Below, in pieces: positions 917 to 27,436 of a DNA stretch of 27,734 bases. The notes beneath the pieces are model-generated. The model was not told where the DNA came from and searched no databases. It worked only from the letters and a program-made list of their open reading frames with translations. Within the stretch, counting starts at the first letter, position 1; the number at the start of each line of letters is the position of its first letter. A program made the translations under genes and the position numbers. Origin of the DNA: a virus (taxonomy: Duplodnaviria > Caudoviricetes); IMG/VR virus record IMGVR_UViG_3300011336_000712, positions 1 to 27,734 of that record. One strand, 5' to 3'.

Positions 917-3265
917 CTAGCTCAAACGGTAGGTGACAAAGGTGTTAGCAGCCGTTCGTCGTGATGCAAAGCGACCAGACGTGCCTGTAGCAACAGAACC
1001 GGAACCAACAACAGTGTGGGCAGTACCTGCCAATACACGCACCAGGCTGGGACCAGTGTTAATCACACTCCACTCAAAGGTAAAGTTGTCGTAAGTGCTG
1101 CTGAAACCAGCTTGAGTGTCTGTGCCAGTAGGCAACGTCATGTCAGTCGCTGCCGCTGAGGTGCTGGTGATGATGCCAGCTTTTAGGTTTGCGACTGTAA
1201 GAGTTGCAGTGGCATTAACTGCTGCAGGAGCGGGCTGGTCATGCGCAATTACACCGTCATTAGTGATACGGAAACGCTCCGTCGGGGAACTAGCCCCATC
1301 CGCCGTAGTGGAGAACACTAGCCTGCCCGGCATGTCATTCAGGCCAGGGGCGCCGTCTACAAAACAATCAATACGTGCGGCTATCGTGTAGCCAGAGCCG
1401 TCGTAACCCCTGAAACTGAAAGTTGCAATGTTATCGGCGCTTCCGAGAATTGAAGGGGTCGCTCCTGTTCCACGAGACCCAAACATGTTAATGATGCTGT
1501 GCTCTGTACCAGCGTCTCTGTTGGCAACAATATTTAGACCAACAAAACCATCGCCTTGCATTCTTACAACGTCATCGCCTGAGCCTTTAATCTGTAACAA
1601 CCCTGCGCCAAGACTCGTAGACGTACCAACTAAGAGCCTGCCGAAGCTGTCGATGCGGGCACGTTCGGTATCATTGGTTCCAAACGTCAAAGCAGCATTT
1701 GATTTATTGGTAATTGTTGCGCTTGCGTCATTAAAGCTTATTAATGTCAAAGCTCCGGTTAGCCCGCTTCTCCCCCCTCCATTGGCTACAAAATAGGCTG
1801 CATAGCCAGATCCCGCAGTGTTAAGCAGTACATTGTCGTCTGCACTTGCATTAATATGCAGCTTGTAAGCAGGACTCGCAGTGCCAATCCCTACATTGCC
1901 TCCTGGTAGAAGTGTAATTATGTTGAAGTCGGTGGTATCACTGCTTATTCTTGCGCCAATCCTTAAATCGTCAGCTCCACTTGCGCCATTAACAAAAAAA
2001 CGTCTGCTTGATCCACCAATAACAAAACGAGAACCACCTGCTTGGTCAATATTTAGCGTCGCCCCGCCGCCAACTGTCCCAGGCGTACTAGTCCCTATGC
2101 CTAGGCGGCCTGAGGAGTCGATGCGGGCAAATTCGCTCGTGGCATCATTAAACGTGATTTCTGTGGCGTTGATCTTTATCCTATCTCTATCATTGCTGCC
2201 AATCTTTAATAGACCAGTTGTTCCGCCATCAACGTAAGAGTTGGTGGCTCCCGTCCCAGCCCAAAGCAAAGCGGCGGTAAAACGAGCGTTTCCAACAACG
2301 TGCAATGGCTGGTTAGGGACCGAAGTCCCCACGCCCACGAGCCCTGCCGAGGTGATACGCAGGCGTTCTTGCAGAGAAGTAGCGGCCGAAGTAGCTCTTG
2401 TTGCAAATGCTAAATCGCCTGCTGTGTTGTTGCTGCCATCGGTTAGAAGACCTTTGATTGCAGCAAATCCAAGGCTATTTGCAAAGTCACCTTGATTATT
2501 TGTGAAGAGCAGCGCACCTCCTTCGCCTCCACTTGCACCAGTGCCGGAAAGGCGCAGCATCCCGCCCCGTCCTCCAGCATCCGTGAGGTTAGCCGTCGAT
2601 TGACCAACACCTGCAATGTGAACCTGAGCACGGATTGTTGCGGCCCCCACCCCGACATTCCCACTCGCATCCACGAACACGCGGCCAACCCCAGAGGAGC
2701 TGATGGCTAATTGGTCTGCGCCGGGTGAATAAATGCCTGTGTTAGGGTCCGTGGTAAAACTATAAGTAGGCGCAGATGCACTACCCAAGCTAACGGCTTC
2801 AATTTGGCCGGCAGCATCAACTCTTAAACGCTCAGTACCACTGGTAGTAATAGAAACCTGGTCGACAGCGGAAGCATATATACCAGTATTACTATCGCCA
2901 GCAAAACTAATTGACGGATTAGCCGCAGTGCCAGATGCAAATACACCGGAAGTGATGGTATAAATACCGCCGCTAATATTAGTAAAATTACCGCTTGCAA
3001 AATTTGCAGTAGTACCGGTAACAGTAGTGCCTGTAATGGTAGTGAATCCAGCGGTTCCACCTGTAAGAGTGGTAAATTGGCCGATGCCTCCAGTTACAGT
3101 TGCACCCGATACAAGAGTGCCACCTTGAATAATGTTGCCGGAAACAGTTCCAGTGACTGTTAAACTGCCGGATGTAGACGCAACAAGCCCGGATACTGTT
3201 ACTGTTTGATCGCTTCCACCGTTAGTGAAAACAATGTTATCGACTTTGATACTTCCGTATGGCAT
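917..3265 (-). CDS. Tail fibre / receptor-binding protein (782 aa)
   Basis: G/T/S-rich, with repeated ERxRIxxxGx(V/L)GIGTxxP and NTGIY...DQ modules typical of phage fibre shafts. Confidence 0.85.
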   Translation of the reverse strand: MPYGSIKVDNIVFTNGGSDQTVTVSGLVASTSGSLTVTGTVSGNIIQGGTLVSGATVTGGIGQFTTLTGGTAGFTTITGTTVTGTTANFASGNFTNISGGIYTITSGVFASGTAANPSISFAGDSNTGIYASAVDQVSITTSGTERLRVDAAGQIEAVSLGSASAPTYSFTTDPNTGIYSPGADQLAISSSGVGRVFVDASGNVGVGAATIRAQVHIAGVGQSTANLTDAGGRGGMLRLSGTGASGGEGGALLFTNNQGDFANSLGFAAIKGLLTDGSNNTAGDLAFATRATSAATSLQERLRITSAGLVGVGTSVPNQPLHVVGNARFTAALLWAGTGATNSYVDGGTTGLLKIGSNDRDRIKINATEITFNDATSEFARIDSSGRLGIGTSTPGTVGGGATLNIDQAGGSRFVIGGSSRRFFVNGASGADDLRIGARISSDTTDFNIITLLPGGNVGIGTASPAYKLHINASADDNVLLNTAGSGYAAYFVANGGGRSGLTGALTLISFNDASATITNKSNAALTFGTNDTERARIDSFGRLLVGTSTSLGAGLLQIKGSGDDVVRMQGDGFVGLNIVANRDAGTEHSIINMFGSRGTGATPSILGSADNIATFSFRGYDGSGYTIAARIDCFVDGAPGLNDMPGRLVFSTTADGASSPTERFRITNDGVIAHDQPAPAAVNATATLTVANLKAGIITSTSAAATDMTLPTGTDTQAGFSSTYDNFTFEWSVINTGPSLVRVLAGTAHTVVGSGSVATGTSGRFASRRTAANTFVTYRLS

Positions 3266-3310: not shown

Positions 3311-5098
3311 TTAGGGAAGAACCGTAATAGTGCCACGGATAATTAAACCGGCATCCCCTGAAATTACACCGGATGAAATCAATGCGGGCGTTGTGCCAGA
3401 TGGCGCGTTAAAAACACCTGACACAAAGTTTGCGCTGGTACCGGTAACCGTAGTTCCAGTAATAGTTGTAAATCCGGCAGTATTTCCCGTAATAACTGCA
3501 CCGGAGATTCGACTTGTAAATACTCCAGAAACACCGTTTACAGTGGTGAAGCTACCGATGTTACCAGTAACAGTTGCACCAGAAACACTTGACGCGAATA
3601 CACCGGTAACACTGGCAAGATCTGTAAAATTGCCCTTATTTCCTGTAACCGTGGCTCCAGAAAGACTGGTTGCACCAACAATAGTTTGGCCGGTAATTGT
3701 GGTAAATTGCCCGGCATTTCCGGTGACCGTGGTCCCAGAAAAACTTGTGGTTGCAACAATTGTTTGTCCGGTAACAGTAGCAAAATTTGCGCTATTTCCG
3801 GTAAACGTTACGCCTGAGACATAAGAAGTAAATACCCCAGAGATGCCTGTGATTACTGAAAAGTTGCCCGTATTACCTGTGACAGTAGCACCTGAAACAC
3901 TAGTTGTTCCAACAACGTCTTGTCCTGTGATGCTTGTAAAGTTGGCTGCCGTGCCTGTTACAGCAACACCAGATAAAGCTGAAGTGAATACTCCAGTTGC
4001 CCCAGTAACACTGGTAAATTGACCAATGTTTCCAGTAACGGTATTGCCAATTACTGTTGTACCAAAAACACTGGTAGTTCCATACAAAGTATCACCGGTA
4101 ACCGTAATAAATAACGCTGTAGTACCAGTGACCGTGGCACCCGAAACACTTGTTGTGCCGACAATAGTTTGACCGGTAATTGTAGAAAATCTGCCGGTAT
4201 TGCCAGTGACTGTATCCCCGGAAAGACTGCTTGTAAATACGCCTGTAGCACCGGTCAGTGTTGTGAATCTACCTGTATTACCTGTAACAACCGTGCCGCT
4301 TACCAAACCAGTCGCATATACACCAGAAGCAACATAAGCATTACCAAGAACCGTTAGGTCGCCGGATACGATGACGCAAGTAAAAGCAAGGTTTTCAAAC
4401 GCACCGCTTACGGCCGTAATGGTTCCACCGGGAATGCTTGCCCCATAAAGGTAAGAGCTGTAGACACCACTGGTAAAGTTTGCAGTTGTACCAGTGACTG
4501 TTGCACCTGTGATTCGAGTAAATGCAGCAGTTGTACCGGTAACTGTTGTGCCACTTAATGTGCCGGTTACCGTTAATCCCGAGCTAATAGCAACGTTACC
4601 ACCAACATTTAAGGTGCCGGCAACAGTTGCGTTTCCATTAACAGTCTGAGCGGCGGTAACAACAGATTGAAAATTACCCGTTGTTGCATTGACTGTATTG
4701 CCGGTGATAGTTGCGCCAGAGACCCTGGAGCTAAAGATGCCGGTCTGAGCGGTAATGGTGGTACCTGTAAAAGTAACGCCGCTGACAGTTCCGCTGACAG
4801 TTAAATTATTTTGTACTACAACACCACTAAAAGAAGCAAGGCTCGTGCCTGTAATAGTCGTTACGTATGTACTGCCACTGACAGTGAGATCCCCTTGAAC
4901 AATCAAGCCGCTGGTAATGACACCACCAGTGACTGGAATGTATTTAGTTGTAAGGTAATCCCTAAAACCTGAAACGGTAATACGTTTATTTTTTAAGGTG
5001 GGGTCAACTTCAAAGACGTGCACCATCGTGAGCAAATCCTGCTCAGCAATCTCGGATCCCGTAAGGATCGGAAGCTCAGATATACGTCTGTTTGCCAC
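3311..5098 (-). CDS. Repeat-rich tail fibre/spike-like structural protein (595 aa)
   Basis: N-terminal MANRRISELP...DLL attachment-type motif followed by T/G/S/V-rich tandem repeats. Confidence 0.75.
   Translation of the reverse strand: MANRRISELPILTGSEIAEQDLLTMVHVFEVDPTLKNKRITVSGFRDYLTTKYIPVTGGVITSGLIVQGDLTVSGSTYVTTITGTSLASFSGVVVQNNLTVSGTVSGVTFTGTTITAQTGIFSSRVSGATITGNTVNATTGNFQSVVTAAQTVNGNATVAGTLNVGGNVAISSGLTVTGTLSGTTVTGTTAAFTRITGATVTGTTANFTSGVYSSYLYGASIPGGTITAVSGAFENLAFTCVIVSGDLTVLGNAYVASGVYATGLVSGTVVTGNTGRFTTLTGATGVFTSSLSGDTVTGNTGRFSTITGQTIVGTTSVSGATVTGTTALFITVTGDTLYGTTSVFGTTVIGNTVTGNIGQFTSVTGATGVFTSALSGVAVTGTAANFTSITGQDVVGTTSVSGATVTGNTGNFSVITGISGVFTSYVSGVTFTGNSANFATVTGQTIVATTSFSGTTVTGNAGQFTTITGQTIVGATSLSGATVTGNKGNFTDLASVTGVFASSVSGATVTGNIGSFTTVNGVSGVFTSRISGAVITGNTAGFTTITGTTVTGTSANFVSGVFNAPSGTTPALISSGVISGDAGLIIRGTITVLP
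3428..4300 (-). repeat. About 11 tandem 26-aa (78-nt) coding repeats, consensus SGxTVTGNxGxFxxITGxTxVxTxSV
   Basis: Read from the translation, e.g. SGDTVTGNTGRFSTITGQTIVGTTSV and SGATVTGNTGNFSVITGISGVFTSYV. One unit has a 5-aa insertion. Confidence 0.85.
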
Positions 5099-5152
5099 CT
5101 ATTAAATCACAAAAACCCCATAAAATGAATTATAGTCGCAGTGTGTTTAACC

Positions 5153-5515
5153 CTATCGCGCTTTGATTTCAATGCGTGGCAGTACATTGGATGCAAAGTT
5201 CCAGGTGGCCTGTACTCCGGTTACCAGACCGCAAGCAATCGCAAACACAACGATCAGTTCGGCGACTGTTAAGTTGCGACGGACGTAGACAACGCTGGGT
5301 TGAGGAGCCGCAAAAGCAATTGGAGCACTTGGCACAGATGGCTTGGGAGCTAGCGCCTCTACCTGAGCTGCTTGGGCTGCCTGCTGTTGCAAGATTGTTT
5401 GACGCACAGCTTCATCGCGAGCACGTGCCTTCAGTTGTTCCAGGAAATCAGGCGGTAGCTCATAGCCCAACTCTTGGCTTTGAGGAGGAACACTAGAAGG
5501 AATTTGATCTTCCAT
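5153..5515 (-). CDS. Hypothetical membrane protein
   Basis: 120-aa ORF with one C-terminal hydrophobic segment (LIVVFAIACGLVTGV). Confidence 0.7.
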   Translation of the reverse strand: MEDQIPSSVPPQSQELGYELPPDFLEQLKARARDEAVRQTILQQQAAQAAQVEALAPKPSVPSAPIAFAAPQPSVVYVRRNLTVAELIVVFAIACGLVTGVQATWNFASNVLPRIEIKAR

Positions 5516-5564
5516 TTACTATGCAGAACGTTTTCCCACACCTTAGCATATAAACAAAAGAGGT

Positions 5565-5981
5565 ATGCCAATGAATCACGGCCTTAGAAAAGGATTAGAA
5601 GACATTGCCAAAGAACTAAAAGGCATACGGAATATCCTTGCTTCTATGTGGCATGCCCGCTATGCCAATGGAGAAACTGACATAGTCAATCCAGAAGCAT
5701 TTACCGATGAGTATGTATCGACAGAAGAATGTGCTCAACGTCTTGGGATCTCAGACCAAACCATTAGAAATTGGATTTCTTCCGGCAAGAAAAACCCTGG
5801 CAAAGGCTGGACCGAAGGCATCCATTATGTCAACGTGACTCCTGATCCCACCAAAAAAGCGGTCATTCGAATTCCATGGAATCAGTTGGTAGCTTCCTTT
5901 GCCAAAAATAAAGAAGTTACTCAGCTTGATTTCAGGAGAACTGATATGTATACGCTTGTTGACCGGGGGCCATTACCTTGA
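5565..5981 (+). CDS. Helix-turn-helix DNA-binding protein (excisionase/MerR-like)
   Basis: YVSTEECAQRLGISDQTIRNWI is a classic HTH signature. Confidence 0.75.
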   Translation: MPMNHGLRKGLEDIAKELKGIRNILASMWHARYANGETDIVNPEAFTDEYVSTEECAQRLGISDQTIRNWISSGKKNPGKGWTEGIHYVNVTPDPTKKAVIRIPWNQLVASFAKNKEVTQLDFRRTDMYTLVDRGPLP

Positions 5982-13638: not shown

Positions 13639-14007
13639 TTATGCGGCAAAATTTTTATCGTCAATCCTGGGTTTCCAGGGGAGTAATTCTAGTGTATCTT
13701 GTTGCATCCAGGCGATGATTTTTTCTAGTTTTAAACAATCAAAAAAAGATTGTTTTGAGTACCATTCTTGCATTTTTTCACTGGCCTTGTTGGTGTTACA
13801 TCTCCTGCAAGCAGGTAAAAGATTATGGCGATTAGAAGACCCAGATTTAAACCTGGGTATTATATGATCCAGGCTTGTTGCAGGCTCTCCACAATAACCA
13901 CAGGAATGGTTCCAGGATTTATAAATTTCATCTCGAAAACGTTTCTTGGCAAGTTTTGGCGTTAATTCAACTAGCAGGGCAAGGGGCTCGTGCTCGTTGC
14001 AAAACAT
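13639..14007 (-). CDS. HNH endonuclease (McrA-like)
   Basis: CGYCG...SLDHIIP...G.....NLLPACRRCNTNK. Confidence 0.9.
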   Translation of the reverse strand: MFCNEHEPLALLVELTPKLAKKRFRDEIYKSWNHSCGYCGEPATSLDHIIPRFKSGSSNRHNLLPACRRCNTNKASEKMQEWYSKQSFFDCLKLEKIIAWMQQDTLELLPWKPRIDDKNFAA

Positions 14008-17809: not shown

Positions 17810-18853
17810 TTATTTAGCTTGTGCGCTTAACAGTTTCTTTTTAAACTCTTCAGCCTGTGCCTGAGCTTTGTCTGAGGCCAGACTTGAAGCGTACGCATTT
17901 GCGTCAGGAGTCAAGCTAGTTCCAACAGGCGAAAGACCTTGGGCGTTTTGATAAGAAGCCATCGGTGCAGGAACGCTACCAGGAGCAAGTAATGCATTCA
18001 TGCCGGTCTGCAGAGGAGTACCGCCAGGGGCTGCATCTTGGAACCGGGTAAACATCTTGGCTTGCTGTTGATTGGCTGCGCCACCAAAGTAGCTGGACTC
18101 AGCACCAAGACCAGTTGCTCCAGTGAATGCAGAAGGTGCGACTGTTGTGTAATCAACCGGTCCGGTCGGCGCGGCGGTGGCAAGCGGATTAGAGGGATTG
18201 AAAAGTAAGCTAGTAGGCTGAGCACCAGCAAATGCACCCATCTCAGTAGGTTGGCCCATGGCACCTGCGTTGAGAGTGCCTTGAATTGCATCGTAACCCG
18301 ACTGGCCAGGCTTCACTTTAGCTGCAAGACCGCCGTGCTTTTGTGCCCAGATCTGCATGCCAATATCACGAGCGGCATTCATTTCTTCTTGGGTCTTGGC
18401 ACCGGCACGTGCACGTTCGTAACGCTGAAGCTCAGGGTCTTGTGCGGTGAGCTGAGCAACGCGTGATGCTTCTTGCTGGTATGCACGTTCGACGGCAGGG
18501 GAGTAGGAACCTTGCTGACCTTGGGTAGGAGCAACTGAATAACCGGCATTACCGCCACTGCCACCACGGTTCCCTAAACGCAGCTCAGCATCACGGTAAG
18601 ACTCGCCTCGCCGATCTTTTGGAGGGATAGCGCCCCACTGTGGCTTTTGTGCTGTATCTCCACCAAGAGATAATGCAGTGCCGAGCGCTCCAAGGATACC
18701 GCCACCAGCAAGCTGAGCCGCAGACATGCCTCGATTAAGTAAGGCGCCGGCAGCAGGTGTAGCCTGTCGTAAGGTGAGTCCTGCAGCGCTACCGCCAAAA
18801 CGACTTGCTAATCCTGGAATAGCGGACATACCGCGAAGAAGTGCCGGGTTCAT
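17810..18853 (-). CDS. A/G/Q-rich putative internal virion protein
   Basis: ATG at 18853 with GGAGGT RBS; composition like ejection/internal proteins. Confidence 0.7.
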   Translation of the reverse strand: MNPALLRGMSAIPGLASRFGGSAAGLTLRQATPAAGALLNRGMSAAQLAGGGILGALGTALSLGGDTAQKPQWGAIPPKDRRGESYRDAELRLGNRGGSGGNAGYSVAPTQGQQGSYSPAVERAYQQEASRVAQLTAQDPELQRYERARAGAKTQEEMNAARDIGMQIWAQKHGGLAAKVKPGQSGYDAIQGTLNAGAMGQPTEMGAFAGAQPTSLLFNPSNPLATAAPTGPVDYTTVAPSAFTGATGLGAESSYFGGAANQQQAKMFTRFQDAAPGGTPLQTGMNALLAPGSVPAPMASYQNAQGLSPVGTSLTPDANAYASSLASDKAQAQAEEFKKKLLSAQAK

Positions 18854-18855
18854 AA

Positions 18856-19317
18856 TTACCTCCAAAGCTCATGTAAATAAAGACGAGTGCCAACCGAGAC
18901 ATCGGCAGGTCCAGGTAGTGCCTGGATGAATTCAGCACCAGAGCGTTCGTAACGGTAACGAGCCTGGAACGGATCCTTGTAGTTGGGAACGTAAAGAATG
19001 CCAGCTAAACGGTTTGTTTCGTAGAGATAAACCTCGTCCCAAACCTTTAATGCTTCTTTGGCATTGCTAGACCGGATAGTACGGTCAACGTCGCCAGCAA
19101 TACTTTCAAGTCGAGTAGAAGGTGAAGTTGCGACCTCGGTCTTCTTCTCGGCGGTATCACAACGACCAATTTGAATAGCAATTTTATCGTAGAAGTACGA
19201 ATCTGGGACTGTATTCATGGATTCTTCAAGCCGACTGTAGTCACCAGCGGGCACCGACACGGTAAAATACCCTAGATGGTAACGGACTCTGCTTTTGTCA
19301 AAATCAGACAGTTGCAC
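18856..19317 (-). CDS. Putative head-completion/adaptor-type protein; first 30 codons supplied by HNH cassette 1
   Basis: GTG at 19317 lies 7 nt after GGAGG (19325-19329), whereas the ATG at 19323 is only 1 nt from it. Product inferred from size and position. Confidence 0.75.
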   Translation of the reverse strand: MQLSDFDKSRVRYHLGYFTVSVPAGDYSRLEESMNTVPDSYFYDKIAIQIGRCDTAEKKTEVATSPSTRLESIAGDVDRTIRSSNAKEALKVWDEVYLYETNRLAGILYVPNYKDPFQARYRYERSGAEFIQALPGPADVSVGTRLYLHELWR

Positions 19318-19836
19318 AACCATGCCTCCAGTACAAACATTCTAAATCAGTAAGCCCATGGCCAAACGAGAAATTAACCCACAAACAGGCAAGCACTACG
19401 TTTTTGGAGACGTACGACAAGATGGGTATATTTTTAGGCAGTGGGGCCGAGTAAAAGCAGATGGATTCCAACAAGCCCTATGGCTGAGTCCCAAGGCTTT
19501 TAAACGCAACAGAGAACAAACACTTTGTTATCACCGAGAAAAAACAAAAGAGCTTAGAAACTGGGTGAATAAACTAAAAATATTCTATGGTTGCGCAATC
19601 TGCGGATACAATCAAGAGCCAGAGGGTCTAGACATTGATCACTTGCGTGACAAATCTTTTAATATTGGAGGCGAAATAAAAACAAACAAAAGCCGAATTA
19701 TCAAAGAAATACAAAAATGCCAAATTTTATGCGGAACTTGTCACAACATAAAAACAAGAGCCCCTGAAAAATACGCTCAATTAATAAAACAAAAAGGGGA
19801 AAAATGTTTAGATATCAATCAATTTTTAAAACAAGA
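19228..19836 (+). mobile_element. HNH cassette 1: endonuclease plus recoded replacement 5' end of the target gene
   Basis: Bounded by a protein-level direct duplication (19228-19317 vs 19837-19926); AT-rich; nuclease antisense to all neighbours. Confidence 0.8.
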
Positions 19837-19849
19837 AAGACGAGCGTAA
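19358..19849 (+). CDS. HNH-family putative homing endonuclease 1
   Basis: GCAICGY...LDIDHL...KCQILCGTCHNIKT His-Me/zinc motif; N-terminal INPQTG...GDVRQDG domain. Confidence 0.85.
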   Translation: MAKREINPQTGKHYVFGDVRQDGYIFRQWGRVKADGFQQALWLSPKAFKRNREQTLCYHREKTKELRNWVNKLKIFYGCAICGYNQEPEGLDIDHLRDKSFNIGGEIKTNKSRIIKEIQKCQILCGTCHNIKTRAPEKYAQLIKQKGEKCLDINQFLKQERRA

Positions 19850-19926
19850 TCGCCCGCCGGGACAGAAACCGTGAAATAGCCCAGGTGATACCTGACCCTA
19901 CTTTTGTCAAAGTCAGATAATTGCAC
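19819..19926 (-). pseudogene. Orphan 5' fragment of gene 18856-19317
   Basis: GTG start; translates MQLSDFDKSRVRYHLGYFTVSVPAGDYARL then SCFKN*. 29 of 30 aa match the intact gene. TATAAT box at 19948-19953. Confidence 0.92.
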
Positions 19927-19975
19927 TTCTAACTTGCGTATCTTTCAATTATAAATGCAAAGAATCCCTTGAAAC

Positions 19976-20650
19976 TTAACCTTGGTAAGGATTTGAGCTG
20001 ATGTATTGTTCCAGCATTTCTTGTGCCAAGCTGCGCCTAGGGACCATAGCAGAAGCTGCCATCTGTTCAAACATAGATTGTTGTAAAGTCTTTTGCTTGG
20101 GTTGTACCAGGGATGCTCCGTACATCATGGCTTGTACAAAAGAATCCATATTGGATCCGGTGTTTTGTGCGTTGGACGTTGGCGTTTGATTACTTGTAAA
20201 TTCGGCAGCCTTGCCAAGGCTTGCCATGTGTCCAATACCAACTTCGTATTTATTGTCTCCCGTTTTAAATGTTGCCAGATTTCCGTAACCCCCTTGGTCA
20301 GCAAGAGGTGTAAATTTGCCTGCACCTTCCATATATACAGGCGTTCCTTCGGGAAGGGCCCAGTCTTCCCCTTGATGGAAAGAAGATGCTCCAGCAGTAG
20401 GTGCGGTGCGAGGACCAAATTTAGATGTGACGGCTACGTTGGAAGCTGGATTTAAAACCAGTTGGCCTTCTTTGTTTTTGATAATTGCAGGAACCTTTTG
20501 TTCGCCAATGCGTAAACCAGTTAATGCACTGCGAATAGTACTTGGGTCAATGTGTTTTCCCGTACCAAGATCTTTTACGTATATATGGCCATGGGGACCA
20601 GTGGAGGTTCCGGTACTGCCGATATTTCCTAAGAATGCAATGCCTGCCAT
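19976..20650 (-). CDS. M23-family peptidase domain protein, circularly permuted
   Basis: GSTGTSTGPHGH at the N-terminus precedes TSKFGPR...HQGED...GTPV...GGYGN...GHM. Confidence 0.8.
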   Translation of the reverse strand: MAGIAFLGNIGSTGTSTGPHGHIYVKDLGTGKHIDPSTIRSALTGLRIGEQKVPAIIKNKEGQLVLNPASNVAVTSKFGPRTAPTAGASSFHQGEDWALPEGTPVYMEGAGKFTPLADQGGYGNLATFKTGDNKYEVGIGHMASLGKAAEFTSNQTPTSNAQNTGSNMDSFVQAMMYGASLVQPKQKTLQQSMFEQMAASAMVPRRSLAQEMLEQYISSNPYQG

Positions 20651-20677
20651 TATTCTTTTATTTTTAATTTTAAGACT

Positions 20678-20701
20678 AAAAAACCCCTGGTTTCCCAGGG
20701 G
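20678..20701 (-). terminator. Rho-independent terminator after the orphan 3' end
   Basis: Minus strand CCCCTGG-gaaa-CCAGGGG-TTTTTT. Confidence 0.9.
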
Positions 20702-20716
20702 CCAGTAGGAGACAAG

Positions 20717-20749
20717 TTAAACGCGGACTAAGTCGGCAGCAAGTACGGC
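20717..20749 (-). pseudogene. Orphan 3' end of gene 21268-21681
   Basis: Translates AVLAADLVRV*; the intact gene ends AVLAADLIRV*. Confidence 0.85.
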
Positions 20750-20794
20750 AATAAAACGTTTCAGGTGTTATAGTTTTATTTTGCTATCTTAAAA

Positions 20795-21253
20795 ATGAAA
20801 AGAATTAATCCAAAAACTGGGGCATTTTTTAAACACGGCGACTGCAGGGAAGACGGCTTTATTTTTATTGGTTACAACTTTAAAAAAATTAAACAAGACG
20901 GAACTTTTTTAGAGGTATGGATGAGTCCCGAACAACAAGAAAAGAAAAAAACCTATGACAAAAAAAGATCTCAACGTTTGTCTTCTGAAAACAGAAACTG
21001 GATGAACAATTTAAAAATAACAGAAGGTTGCGCATGCTGTGGGTATAACGAACACCCCGAGGGACTAGATTTTGATCATCTTTACGATAAAAAATTTAAC
21101 ATTGGACGAGGGGGTACGTTTAGCAAAAAAAGACTTGAAAAAGAAATAAAAAAATGCCAGGTTCTCTGTGGCACATGCCATCACATAAAAACAAGAAATA
21201 AAGAAAAATTTAACGCCATAATGAAAAAGAGGGGTGTTGCCCCTCTTGGTTGA
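20795..21253 (+). CDS. HNH-family putative homing endonuclease 2 (paralog of 19358-19849)
   Basis: GCACCGY...LDFDHL...KCQVLCGTCHHIKT; N-terminal INPKTG...GDCREDG domain. Confidence 0.85.
   Translation: MKRINPKTGAFFKHGDCREDGFIFIGYNFKKIKQDGTFLEVWMSPEQQEKKKTYDKKRSQRLSSENRNWMNNLKITEGCACCGYNEHPEGLDFDHLYDKKFNIGRGGTFSKKRLEKEIKKCQVLCGTCHHIKTRNKEKFNAIMKKRGVAPLG
21224..21247 (-). terminator. Terminator embedded antisense in the 3' end of HNH 2
   Basis: Minus strand AAGAGGGG-caaca-CCCCTCTT-TTT, 20 nt after the stop of gene 21268-21681. Confidence 0.7.
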
Positions 21254-21267
21254 GTTATGCGTTTAAA

Positions 21268-21681
21268 TCAGACCCTTATTAAATCGGCTGCCAAGACCGC
21301 ACTCCAGTCAACCCTTTTGATTTGCTTTAACTGCTCGAGGCTGTTAAATCTCTCACCCGATAAGGACATCTGTAGATCTTTGATTTCTCGGGCAGTCTTC
21401 AGTCCAATGCCTTTGATATGATCTGCGATCATTTGGGCGGTGGCTGAGTTGATGTTCAAGCGAGTGTCCGGAGGAAAAGTACGGGGCTCTTCTTGTGCCG
21501 CTTTATCTTTTACCTGAAGAGCAGTCACCTTTTTGGTAGCTTGCTCGTCAGGGATAAGTTCGGTTTTGTAAGCAGTGTAAAGGCGACCGTCCTGATCTTC
21601 GACCATGAACCAATCGCCGTTATCCCATTCACTTACAATCTTGACGCGAGCGCCTGTTTTTTTATGCTGATGAAGAATCAT
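21268..21681 (-). CDS. Helix-hairpin-helix (ComEA-like) domain protein
   Basis: LNINSATAQMIADHIKGIGLKTAREI...FNSLEQLKQIKRV HhH signature. Confidence 0.8.
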   Translation of the reverse strand: MILHQHKKTGARVKIVSEWDNGDWFMVEDQDGRLYTAYKTELIPDEQATKKVTALQVKDKAAQEEPRTFPPDTRLNINSATAQMIADHIKGIGLKTAREIKDLQMSLSGERFNSLEQLKQIKRVDWSAVLAADLIRV

Positions 21682-24726: not shown

Positions 24727-25689
24727 TCACTCCATCACAAACAGTTTGTTTGCAACCACGTTGGGCTGGGCGTAGTTCAGAAGGCGCCAGGCGTTTTCAG
24801 GGCTCGTTTCCATTTGTTGCTTAAAGCTACCCCAGAAGTTTTCAGGTTGCTGAGGAGCAGAAGCAGCAGGAGGAGCAGGGAACTCACCGTAGTTAGCTTG
24901 AACCGGAGCGGTGGGATAACCACGGGTTTCCAGTTGAGCTTCATTTTCGTACACAGGGTACGGACCTTCAGGACCAAAGAACTTCAGCGTGTAATCGCTA
25001 AGAACATCAGGGTTGGTCAGGATTTCGTTATAAGCCAGATTCTCGGTATGCTCAGCAACCGCAAAATCGGCATAACCACCAATCAGATTTTGTGCACGTT
25101 GGCCCCAGGCTACGGCACTATCGAGCATTCCTTCGAGTTGAAGGGCGTACTGGTTTAGCAGAGCCGGAGCTTCCACCCCGTACGCGTCGATCACTACTCG
25201 GCTTTCCTGGCTCAGACCCAGGTAGTCCGCTACGTCCGCCAAGGAGGGACTCGAGGAAGTTTGGGAAGAGCTGGGCGATGAGGCCGGGCTGGTTAATGAG
25301 GTCGGGGCTGCCGAGTTCCAGGTAGCTGGGCTGCTGGGCTGTCCGTAATTGGCCGGGGTATAGCTCGTCGGAGCTGATTGTTGACCCTGGAACGGGGATT
25401 GAACTGGTGCGCTCAGCAGGTTCACCACCTTGTTGAACGCCGATTCCCATGGATTCCCCTGAGGAGCTTCCGCCGGTTGGGATTGGGGGGCGTACTGAGT
25501 AGGGGCGGATTGGTAGCTGATATTCGCTTGAGGAATCGCTTGGGGGTAAGCGGTCCCCACTTGGTACGCCACCGGAGCCGCTTGGTAGCTGCTGGGCGCC
25601 GGAGCCGCTGCTGTCACGTAGCTGCTCGGGGCTACTGACGGCTGTGCGGGGCTCATCTGTGGGATCGATTGGACGGTAGCGTCCTGCAT
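24727..25689 (-). CDS. Putative capsid scaffolding/assembly protein
   Basis: AAGGAG RBS before ATG 25689; P/Q/A/S-rich; lies between portal and capsid genes. Confidence 0.7.
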   Translation of the reverse strand: MQDATVQSIPQMSPAQPSVAPSSYVTAAAPAPSSYQAAPVAYQVGTAYPQAIPQANISYQSAPTQYAPQSQPAEAPQGNPWESAFNKVVNLLSAPVQSPFQGQQSAPTSYTPANYGQPSSPATWNSAAPTSLTSPASSPSSSQTSSSPSLADVADYLGLSQESRVVIDAYGVEAPALLNQYALQLEGMLDSAVAWGQRAQNLIGGYADFAVAEHTENLAYNEILTNPDVLSDYTLKFFGPEGPYPVYENEAQLETRGYPTAPVQANYGEFPAPPAASAPQQPENFWGSFKQQMETSPENAWRLLNYAQPNVVANKLFVME

Positions 25690-27436
25690 AACTCATCTCC
25701 TTTTGTAAAGCTTCTAACGTTCGATACAGATACGGGGTTAAATCCAATCTTGGATCCGCAGCCATCGGAAGATCCGGTGATTGCGGGTGGGGCGTCTGCA
25801 TCATTCCCCCCACTAGCTTGGCAAACTGAGAGTAAGCACTCTGCAATTCGTTAACCATCCTGAACGGGAACCCAGATAACATCTCGGCCCGTTCCTCATC
25901 CGTCTTAGACGGGAAGAGGTATTTCAGTGCTTCAATGCTATCAACACCTAATTCTTGCAGGTTTCGCACCACGATGGAGTTGTTGAGAATATCTTGTGTC
26001 GAATCTTCATACACAGGACCTAACCAACGCCAAAGCATTGTGACATCCCCGTCAGGAATCAAGCCCATGACTCCGGGTGGAATCTGCTGGGCCTGAACAC
26101 AAGCCATCATTAACTGTTTAACTTTATCGTTGTGTTGCTTAAGAGCCTCTTCATATGCAGCAACTTCTTCCTCAGGTGAACCCTTGGAAGGAGCAACAGG
26201 TTTCTCAAGTCCGGCTGCTTGTGCCAGGGTGTTCTTGAAGAGCTGCTCTTCTTGATAGATGATTAATTCAAGGCAACGGCAGATACCATGCGTATAGATG
26301 GCATTTGCTTTTTTCTTGGAAGTTGCGGAAACACGTCCAAACAGCGACTTGTATTCCGTTGCTGTTACACCGGCGGAAATAGAAAGTTCATCAACGCCGC
26401 CAAGTGCGGTGCGAATCTCTTCTCGATACTGCCGTGCAAATGCGTTTTGGTCACCAGTGATGGCATCTGGAACAATGTAACCAACACGGTCGTTTGGCTC
26501 CAGGTTAGCAATAACGCGTGGCACGCGGATAGTACCGTCTACTCCACGACTGATGGGATCAGATTTAAACGTCGACCGGCTTAATGCACTGGGACTATTG
26601 AAGCCGGAGTTTGCAGCAATGGAGGGACGCTGAATAGTGGTGTCGCCCCCAGCTTCCATCAGGTCCGTTTTGGGACGTGATGAGAGAAGTGTTGGGTTAC
26701 CAAAGAACTGCACATTCTTGCGCATCGTGCGAACCATTTCATCGTGAATGACGATATGGTTTGCCATCGAATCAAAATCTCCGACCCCTTCAGTAGAGAA
26801 ACCTTTGGGGTTGTTGAAGATTTCAACGCAAGGGATAAAGCCTAACGTATTTTTAAACGTTTTAGTTTTCCCTGGTACTGCATAGGAAGGCATGTCAAAT
26901 GACATCTCACCTTCAGCATGAGTCTCTTCAATTTCATCGGCTTTAATAGAAAGCCTGATGTAACGCTTAGCACCCTGGTCGCCTGTTACCGTTGAACCAG
27001 TAATGCTCTTGATGTTGATATTATCATTCAAACCAAAGCCCTTGCGGACTTTATAGCTGTAGATGATTACCACCTCATCCAACTCACCGTCTACGTTGTA
27101 ATAAGAACGGTACTCGTGAGCACGGAAGTAATAAAGGCGATAGCTCACCTTAGTGGGACGGATATAAAAAAGACCCTTCCCGTCACACAAGAAGTATTCC
27201 CAAATGGAATCCAGGCGGATATCCATCTTGTTGTACTTCAGTACACGGTCAAGAAAGTCTTTGCGTTGTGCGCCAAAGTTATCTTGGGATGGAAAAAATT
27301 CAACTCCTTGGCGAATGCCGAAAAGTTTCATCTGAGCAATGTGAGACGCAATGATGCCCGTGTCGACGCCAACACTCCCATCTTTCTCAAGATAGGAATT
27401 GACCATTTCCTTAAGTCGACTTACAGCGTCAGCCAC
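25118..27436 (-). CDS. Putative portal protein with long C-terminal extension
   Basis: Size and position upstream of scaffold and capsid; NTLGFIPCVEIFN...GVGDF segment is portal-like; GAGGAG RBS. Confidence 0.75.
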   Translation of the reverse strand: MADAVSRLKEMVNSYLEKDGSVGVDTGIIASHIAQMKLFGIRQGVEFFPSQDNFGAQRKDFLDRVLKYNKMDIRLDSIWEYFLCDGKGLFYIRPTKVSYRLYYFRAHEYRSYYNVDGELDEVVIIYSYKVRKGFGLNDNINIKSITGSTVTGDQGAKRYIRLSIKADEIEETHAEGEMSFDMPSYAVPGKTKTFKNTLGFIPCVEIFNNPKGFSTEGVGDFDSMANHIVIHDEMVRTMRKNVQFFGNPTLLSSRPKTDLMEAGGDTTIQRPSIAANSGFNSPSALSRSTFKSDPISRGVDGTIRVPRVIANLEPNDRVGYIVPDAITGDQNAFARQYREEIRTALGGVDELSISAGVTATEYKSLFGRVSATSKKKANAIYTHGICRCLELIIYQEEQLFKNTLAQAAGLEKPVAPSKGSPEEEVAAYEEALKQHNDKVKQLMMACVQAQQIPPGVMGLIPDGDVTMLWRWLGPVYEDSTQDILNNSIVVRNLQELGVDSIEALKYLFPSKTDEERAEMLSGFPFRMVNELQSAYSQFAKLVGGMMQTPHPQSPDLPMAADPRLDLTPYLYRTLEALQKEMSYAGRYRPIDPTDEPRTAVSSPEQLRDSSGSGAQQLPSGSGGVPSGDRLPPSDSSSEYQLPIRPYSVRPPIPTGGSSSGESMGIGVQQGGEPAERTSSIPVPGSTISSDELYPGQLRTAQQPSYLELGSPDLINQPGLIAQLFPNFLESLLGGRSGLPGSEPGKPSSDRRVRGGSSGSAKPVRPSTRRNAR

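Follow-up and report, generated by a model that had tools for sequence, protein, structure and literature searches.

The 27,734-nucleotide stretch analysed here (IMG/VR virus record IMGVR_UViG_3300011336_000712; hereafter the window, meaning this stretch at its full length) carries two genes for HNH nucleases, HNH1 and HNH2, each lodged in the end of a phage gene and bracketed by two copies of that gene end. The source phage is a freshwater, S-EIV1-like cyanophage: it is a relative of Synechococcus phage S-EIV1, whose gene A it matches at 87.6%, and it has in common with other S-EIV1-like phages the gene order capsid, 265-aa gene, HhH gene, M23 peptidase, gene A. The virion genes lie on the minus strand. 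Both nuclease genes lie on the plus strand, 945 bp apart, with a GC content of 0.37 for HNH1 and 0.35 for HNH2 in a window of 0.47, and their products are 48% identical (E 1e-48). The pair of paralogous, AT-rich, antisense HNH genes about 1 kb apart that had been noticed from the letters alone in the original prediction is therefore borne out.

HNH1 is inserted 83 nt into gene A (site 1). Read on the minus strand, positions 19926-19837 and 19317-19228 share 29 of 30 residues but only 67 of 90 nt, with a different codon at 19 of the 29 identical residues, and the ungapped score of these flanks, 153, lies far above the maximum of 86 among 242 control flank pairs. An empty allele, that is, the same gene without the cassette, is present at locus L003 of a relative whose capsid protein is 100% identical (loci from other contigs bear the prefix L). 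The M23-to-gene-A distance is 659 in the window and 50 in L003. L003 matches the stranded upstream fragment, termed the orphan, at 88 of 90 nt and the working copy, termed the replacement, at 65 of 90; orphan 1 is identical to it over nt 1-83 and for 34 nt upstream, and gene A of the window differs from it at 25 positions in nt 1-90 and next only at nt 186. The edges of cassette 1 are accordingly placed at gene A nt 90, where differences from L003 end, and at nt 83, where orphan identity ends. The stop codon of HNH1 is an antisense reading of the orphan's Asp-Tyr codons, and a stop of this type falls at orphan nt 78-80 in 5 of the 6 site-1 cassettes with an orphan. HNH1 homologs without the Asp-Tyr antisense stop (L176 758-1306, L177 211-735) extend into the M23 gene or the orphan.

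HNH2 is inserted in the HhH gene, 11 codons short of its end (site 2), where 20749-20717 and 21300-21268 (minus strand) agree at 10 of 11 positions, stop included, and at 21 of 33 nt. The flank score of 46 lies between the 95th (41) and 99th (53) percentiles of the control pairs; because this is within the upper control range, the duplication is established by the empty allele L061 and not by the score. L061, which lacks both cassettes, matches orphan 2 at 31 of 33 nt, followed by 67 of 70 nt downstream, and matches the working copy at 19 of 33. The HhH-to-M23 distance is 618 in the window against 67 in L061, and the two are identical from HhH gene nt 298 onwards and start to differ at nt 379. 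Neither duplication was detected by a six-frame self-tblastn of the window; an ungapped scan of the window showed the one at site 1, and no other nuclease-flanking repeat was among the top 70 matches listed.

Since the empty alleles match the orphans, it is the orphans that belong to the resident phage, and the working ends are of foreign origin. The gene-end duplications around the two HNH genes are thus real; they are obvious in protein and hidden in DNA, and the cassettes bear one replacement 5' end and one replacement 3' end, all as predicted. That no intron or intein is needed for a nuclease to sit in these genes also holds. Both host open reading frames are whole without splicing, no self-splicing element of the group I intron or intein kind lies within a host frame, the nucleases are antisense, and no Rfam family matches at E values up to 1. 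The same layouts recur in independent contigs, and self-splicing introns, or an artefact of assembly, are very unlikely explanations of the inserts. Feature coordinates are collected in Table 1.

Table 1. Cassettes, host genes and associated features, in window coordinates
Feature	Position	Strand	Basis
Cassette 1: 609-bp insert (19235-19843) plus 7 co-converted nt (19228-19234)	19228..19843		M23-to-gene-A distance and L003 comparison
HNH1, 163 aa, zinc-binding HNH nuclease	19358..19849	+	PHROG match, invariant residues
Orphan 1, resident's original first 83 nt of gene A	19844..19926	-	Identity with L003
Replacement 5' end of gene A, 30 codons, Ala28 to Ser at junction	19228..19317	-	Duplication and allele comparison
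Native promoter-like motif, 21 nt before orphan GTG	19948..19955	-	Also before gene A in empty alleles; function putative
Cassette-borne promoter-like motif, 21 nt before replacement GTG	19339..19346	-	Like motif at same spacing in other site-1 cassettes displayed; function putative
Gene A, phrog_29158, 153 aa	18856..19317	-	PHROG match
Hybrid 3' end of gene A, replacement-type then native-type	18856..18903	-	Comparison with L004
Cassette 2: 551-bp insert (20749-21299) plus co-converted junction (21300-21303)	20749..21303		Distance and L061 comparison
HNH2, 152 aa, paralog of HNH1	20795..21253	+	PHROG match, predicted structure
Orphan 2, original last 32 nt of HhH gene	20717..20748	-	L061 match
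Replacement 3' end of HhH gene, Asp to Ser at junction	21268..21303	-	Duplication and allele comparison
Native terminator-like hairpin after orphan 2	20682..20703	-	Hairpin scan; conserved in empty alleles
Cassette-borne terminator-like hairpin within last HNH2 codons	21227..21247	-	Hairpin scan; function putative
HhH-domain gene, 137 aa, host of cassette 2	21268..21681	-	PF12836 below cut-off, E 1.2e-5; conserved in S-EIV1-like phages
M23 peptidase gene, between the two cassettes	19976..20650	-	PF01551

Each cassette had also been predicted to bring matching expression signals. This agrees with a [TC]TTA-N-AAT motif 21 nt ahead of the GTG in both the orphan and the replacement of gene A, and with hairpins after both 3' ends of the HhH gene; a sigma-70 scan, however, did not list the motifs before gene A and found 3 promoters against 4.5 expected by chance. 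Position and conservation suggest that the motif may be a promoter. In L107, L108, L109, L111 and L178, both the orphan and the native motif have been lost, and the stop codons of the nuclease and of the upstream gene lie directly next to each other, so that only the cassette's motif remains. At site 2, a hairpin with a T run, read by eye, follows the replacement in all 9 of the cassettes displayed. A hairpin at the site-1 junction (19858-19839) was considered as a signal and dropped, having no T run in L081.

Cassette 1 is carried by none of the best 80 gene A loci and cassette 2 by 6 of the 78 among them that show the HhH gene. Empty alleles are found in the close relatives L003, L004, L006 and L061, with the orphan piece joined to the rest of the gene, as was foreseen for phages without the cassettes. 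The replacements of the window, L081 and L177 are identical at 78 of 81 nt; the orphans of the latter two match that of the window at 64-66 of 81, and the rest of gene A in L081 matches at 299 of 369. A sequence pattern specific to the replacement was found in a single viral contig, the cassette carrier itself. The same replacement therefore travels with the same nuclease in different backbones.

Both nucleases match HNH families in PHROG (3106/2255; E 4e-19 and 2e-23), the Pfam HNH match reaching only E 0.02, for HNH1. The family alignment contains the Asp-His pair, the later His/Asn ligand and the two CxxC pairs of HNH nucleases, and the catalytic and zinc residues D94, H95, H129, C79, C82, C125 and C128 are invariant in all 41 aligned sequences. 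The predicted model of HNH2 (pLDDT 91.9) has a small sheet, a long helix and a zinc-binding HNH core; its best fold matches are HNH nucleases, although weak (4h9d, Z 5.1, rmsd 3.3, 70 aligned; E 0.01), and structure comparison gave no clear match for the N-terminal domain. No solved relative was found by sequence, the best E being 0.27.

A profile of the 41-sequence alignment was searched against viral and metagenome contigs, and loci were taken for the best 80 of 253 and the best 80 of 482 confirmed matches. From 139 de-duplicated hits, 77 full-length members (55 clusters at 90%) were kept and their sites assigned by hand; the 62 left out scored below 150 or started after profile position 12, and their flank scores were mostly within the control range. 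When the flanks of these homologs were compared, as the original prediction had proposed, a duplication was present in 52 of the 77 members (36 clusters and one mixed) at four gene ends: the 3' end of the terminase large subunit (35/39), the 3' end of the HhH gene (8/9), the 5' end of gene A (6/13, one truncated) and the 3' end of a DUF3310 nucleotide-kinase gene (3/9). None was seen in the thyX-DUF3310 gap (0/5) or at DUF5872 (0/2). The nuclease tree sorts by site, with 6 site changes against 25.5 when shuffled, and the HNH1 and HNH2 clades are sisters (support 99/95); since kin share labels, this is evidence of site fidelity, not of how events followed one another. Members of the family are also present in cultured phages (T7-like and Drulisvirus), where they overlap the end of the nucleotide-kinase gene.

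Several members add detail to this survey. A distant one in L115 (1261-1719), on a long branch apart from the main terminase clade, has at the terminase 3' end a duplication of 76 codons (174/228 nt). As in the window, two members occupy different sites in one phage in L125 (595-1023, 2501-2941) and in the L069/L121 contig. In L112 and L113 (2501-2965) some 175 nt separate the nuclease stop from the terminase orphan downstream, with no overlap between the two, and L099 and L360 hold distant members among tRNA genes.

An unrelated nuclease family uses the same layout at a fifth gene end. In 8 of the 80 gene A loci, a sense-strand HNH_3 gene with a weak AP2 match, unrelated to HNH1 and HNH2, lies 3' of gene A. 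Among 20 loci of this HNH_3-AP2 type that were scored, 15 have a clear orphan, 1 has a degenerate orphan and 4 are cut off; the orphan keeps the ribosome-binding-like GGAGG of the next gene. Replacement and orphan ends are present in L004 (5506-6021) and also in L006-L009, L011, L035, L079, L090 and L251-L270. Gene A of the window itself ends in 23 nt identical to the L004 replacement followed by native-type sequence, and this hybrid end is likely the scar of a third, lost cassette of the HNH_3-AP2 type. Other cassette-free hybrids occur in L078 (HhH end), L345 (terminase end) and L015. They are best read as products of cassette loss by recombination between the copies, or of conversion without the nuclease; on either origin, divergence between the copies does not block such exchange.

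These observations support a model in which each insert pairs a nuclease gene with a spare version of the gene end displaced by the insert, and probably spreads by homing without an intron. During mixed infections, the nuclease would cut the cassette-free allele close to the junction, with predicted breaks, judging from the homology gaps, at gene A nt 84-90 and HhH nt 379-382. Repair would copy the cassette in and leave the recipient's own end stranded as the orphan, while an amino-acid-changing swap at the junction may confer immunity and the promoter- and terminator-like signals may serve the spare gene ends. Later, the orphan could be lost, or the whole cassette could be removed by recombination between the copies, which would yield an immune hybrid allele. 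The orphan, which the original prediction saw as a possible homology arm, is not required as one, since it is absent in 6 of the 12 testable site-1 cassettes.

The terminase cassettes bear on this model from both sides. In two pairs, the nuclease and the upstream copy move together: agreement is 0.99 for the HNH gene, 1.0 for the upstream copy, 0.80 for the downstream copy and 0.79 for the gene body in L126/L130, and 0.91, 0.96, 0.73 and 0.71, respectively, in L114/L122. L152 compared with the empty allele L351 has 48 of 48 nt in common over the downstream copy and 37 of 48 over the upstream copy, and the downstream copy is nearer the empty allele in 4 of five matched comparisons. Other findings weigh against the model. 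The upstream copy is nearer the empty allele in the remaining matched comparison; over 30 terminase cassettes, the upstream copy correlates with the backbone (rho 0.55-0.59) more than with the nuclease (0.22); this global rank correlation fails to separate the upstream copy from the downstream copy (0.61-0.64 with the backbone, 0.16 with the nuclease); 25 of the 77 members have no duplication; and no orphan was found at the nucleotide-kinase gene in the 4 cultured T7-like and Drulisvirus phages examined.

The members without a duplication, some of them between genes (thyX-DUF3310, 5 loci), together with the rarity of cassettes among relatives, would also suit nucleases that are passive hitch-hikers, whose cassettes arrived through illegitimate recombination with a diverged phage and then spread by ordinary recombination, allele-specific cutting playing no part. 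This explanation does not lead one to expect nuclease clades that keep to single sites, sharp junctions at the same codons in distant backbones, invariant active-site residues or the same layout in an unrelated nuclease family, and we regard it as quite improbable.

How the spare ends would escape their own nuclease is a separate matter. The original prediction held that the DNA divergence of the copies is recoding, which would remove the cut site and limit deletion between the repeats. If so, the synonymous differences would have been selected to destroy a long recognition site and to suppress repeat deletion, and two features of the site-1 replacements are in keeping with this: all 13 fall no higher than the lower end of the range of natural alleles (means of 58.6-62.6/81 to the empty alleles, which are 62.0-70.0 to one another), and codons 15-24 use codons that are rare in empty alleles. 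The divergence is nevertheless no deeper than synonymous saturation, with 10 identical codons observed against 9.5 expected at site 1 and 2 against 2.6 at site 2. Replacements of different subclades match each other at 59-62 of 81 nt, as distant as they are from empty alleles; in L180, replacement and orphan are identical at 78 of 81 nt and thus nearly unrecoded; and the hybrid alleles without a cassette suggest continuing deletion between the repeats. Active recoding is on this evidence unlikely, and the scattered synonymous differences are most likely old neutral divergence.

Changes of amino acid at the junction appear to be the better candidate for immunity, and they recur at four sites. 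Ser28 is present in 8 of 9 distinct site-1 replacements against 2 of 48 distinct empty alleles, and the site-2 junction residue is other than Asp/Glu in 4 of 5 lineages against 3 of 39 empty alleles. VSVGT is found in all 8 HNH_3-AP2 loci against 18 of 72 others. The terminase junction is non-CV in 28 of 30 cassettes against 1 of 42 empty alleles, although these were sampled by one subclade's query and the contrast may partly reflect lineage. Two cases run counter to the pattern: L180 lacks both Ser28 and the divergence, and in L102 the Asp is retained. Homing nucleases tend to rely on the conserved first two positions of codons, and wobble changes are tolerated. Such reading by the phage nucleases would explain why a coding change would be needed for immunity.

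The closest published parallels are fungal. WHO elements at yeast FBA1 combine a non-splicing nuclease gene with a replacement gene end, and allele-specific cutting has been shown for WHO6 (Coughlan et al. 2020, PMC7282813). There too the displaced end survives as a fragment, which can decay or be deleted, and some nuclease genes are antisense; unlike the phage cassettes, WHO elements encode intein-zinc-finger nucleases, belong to a meiotic yeast, replace about 400 bp of the 3' end and form clusters (PMC7282813). The phage cassettes have HNH nucleases of about 150 aa, ends of 30-90 nt at both 5' and 3' positions, and promoter- or terminator-like signals. Their architecture is that of a WHO element, a non-splicing nuclease gene between a whole host gene with a foreign end and a stranded native end, whereas HNH1 and HNH2, as HNH proteins of 152-163 aa in phage genes, are not members of the WHO protein family; the cassettes thus work like a WHO element from outside that family. 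Integrating prophages that restore the 3' end of their target gene offer a further analogy.

Endonuclease-ORF gene hybrids in fungal mitochondria (Allomyces atp6; Glomus atp6, atp9, cox2 and nad3) have a foreign C-terminus with 64-81% DNA identity and nearly identical protein, and a native end that matches the empty allele of a relative; they differ in being organellar, in using LAGLIDADG or GIY-YIG nucleases and in affecting, in the cases considered, only 3' ends (PMC3630166). The same pattern of DNA against protein in fungal mitochondrial hybrids is also described in PMC7487136. In T4-like phages, the HNH nuclease MobA sits in a gene and brings a replacement, HomR, with 67-81% DNA identity that holds the nick site, and the nuclease can be lost or swapped for one of another family (bioRxiv 10.1101/2022.08.31.505936). 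MobA differs in that its insertion is mid-gene, the native segment is deleted, the gene is split with extensions and ribosomal bypassing, and the nuclease has 270 aa (bioRxiv 10.1101/2022.08.31.505936). The host frames of the window, in contrast, are whole and the native ends are kept. Intronless homing of the T4 seg and mob genes is alike in that immunity comes from an alternative allele of the neighboring gene and in that segD is an antisense case, although these genes are described as intergenic (PMC2988022, PMC10448857, PMC12724721); displaced promoters are supplied from within the nuclease gene for segG and gene 32 (PMC2988022). The string "duplicat" is absent from PMC2988022 and PMC12724721, and in PMC10448857 it refers only to repeats inside nuclease genes. 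A literature search by titles and abstract openings, incomplete in coverage, turned up no description of a phage element that leaves the old end stranded. The underlying principle is already in print: yeast WHO elements show it, antisense nuclease genes included, and phage MobA shows part of it. New in comparison with these systems are the replacement of a 5' end and the junction substitution.

Besides introns and inteins, the cassettes offer phages a third means of living with a homing nuclease in a gene that they need. The design of WHO elements and of the mitochondrial hybrids is here extended to 5' ends, which come with a spare promoter-like signal. Comparison of matched alleles, whether empty, filled or scarred, narrows each predicted cut to 4-7 nt, so that the source of immunity can be tested directly, and the nucleases are small (about 150 aa), putatively site-specific proteins with predicted targets. 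Gene ends in these phages can be chimeric, with consequences for phylogenies and gene calls. At slightly less than an even chance, in our judgment, phages carry a widespread and undescribed class of WHO-like homing elements, with one small HNH clade that has spread to four or more gene ends (5' as well as 3', in sense or antisense orientation), a second nuclease family that has converged on the design in the same locus, and immunity by an amino-acid-changing junction swap. Homing would then drive substitutions into conserved proteins such as the terminase, which would persist as scars after the cassette is lost.

Some features of the window and its relatives lie outside the cassettes. The genes targeted by the cassettes are 80-100% conserved in relatives, unlike the M23 gene and a 351-aa gene (17810-18865), which are highly variable, with about 23-57% identity beyond the closest group. 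Gene A was considered as a head-tail adaptor, but the Atlas match is weak (0.91, 140/256 features); its predicted structure is of low confidence (pLDDT 36.9). A third HNH gene of the window (13639-14007, minus strand, like the virion genes) is found at the same place in S-EIV1 and many relatives and was set aside as likely a core gene and not mobile. Two tail-fibre-like genes (3311-5098 and 917-3265, minus strand) contain Thr/Gly-rich tandem repeats of 26 residues. Two long open reading frames in different frames (24727-25689 and 25118-27436, minus strand) overlap by about 570 nt at the end of a portal-like gene. In the S-EIV1 record (L101 4620-5846), the capsid region is annotated as a short plus-strand CDS and an opposite-strand CDS, and the capsid match lies at 4752-5843 on the plus strand.

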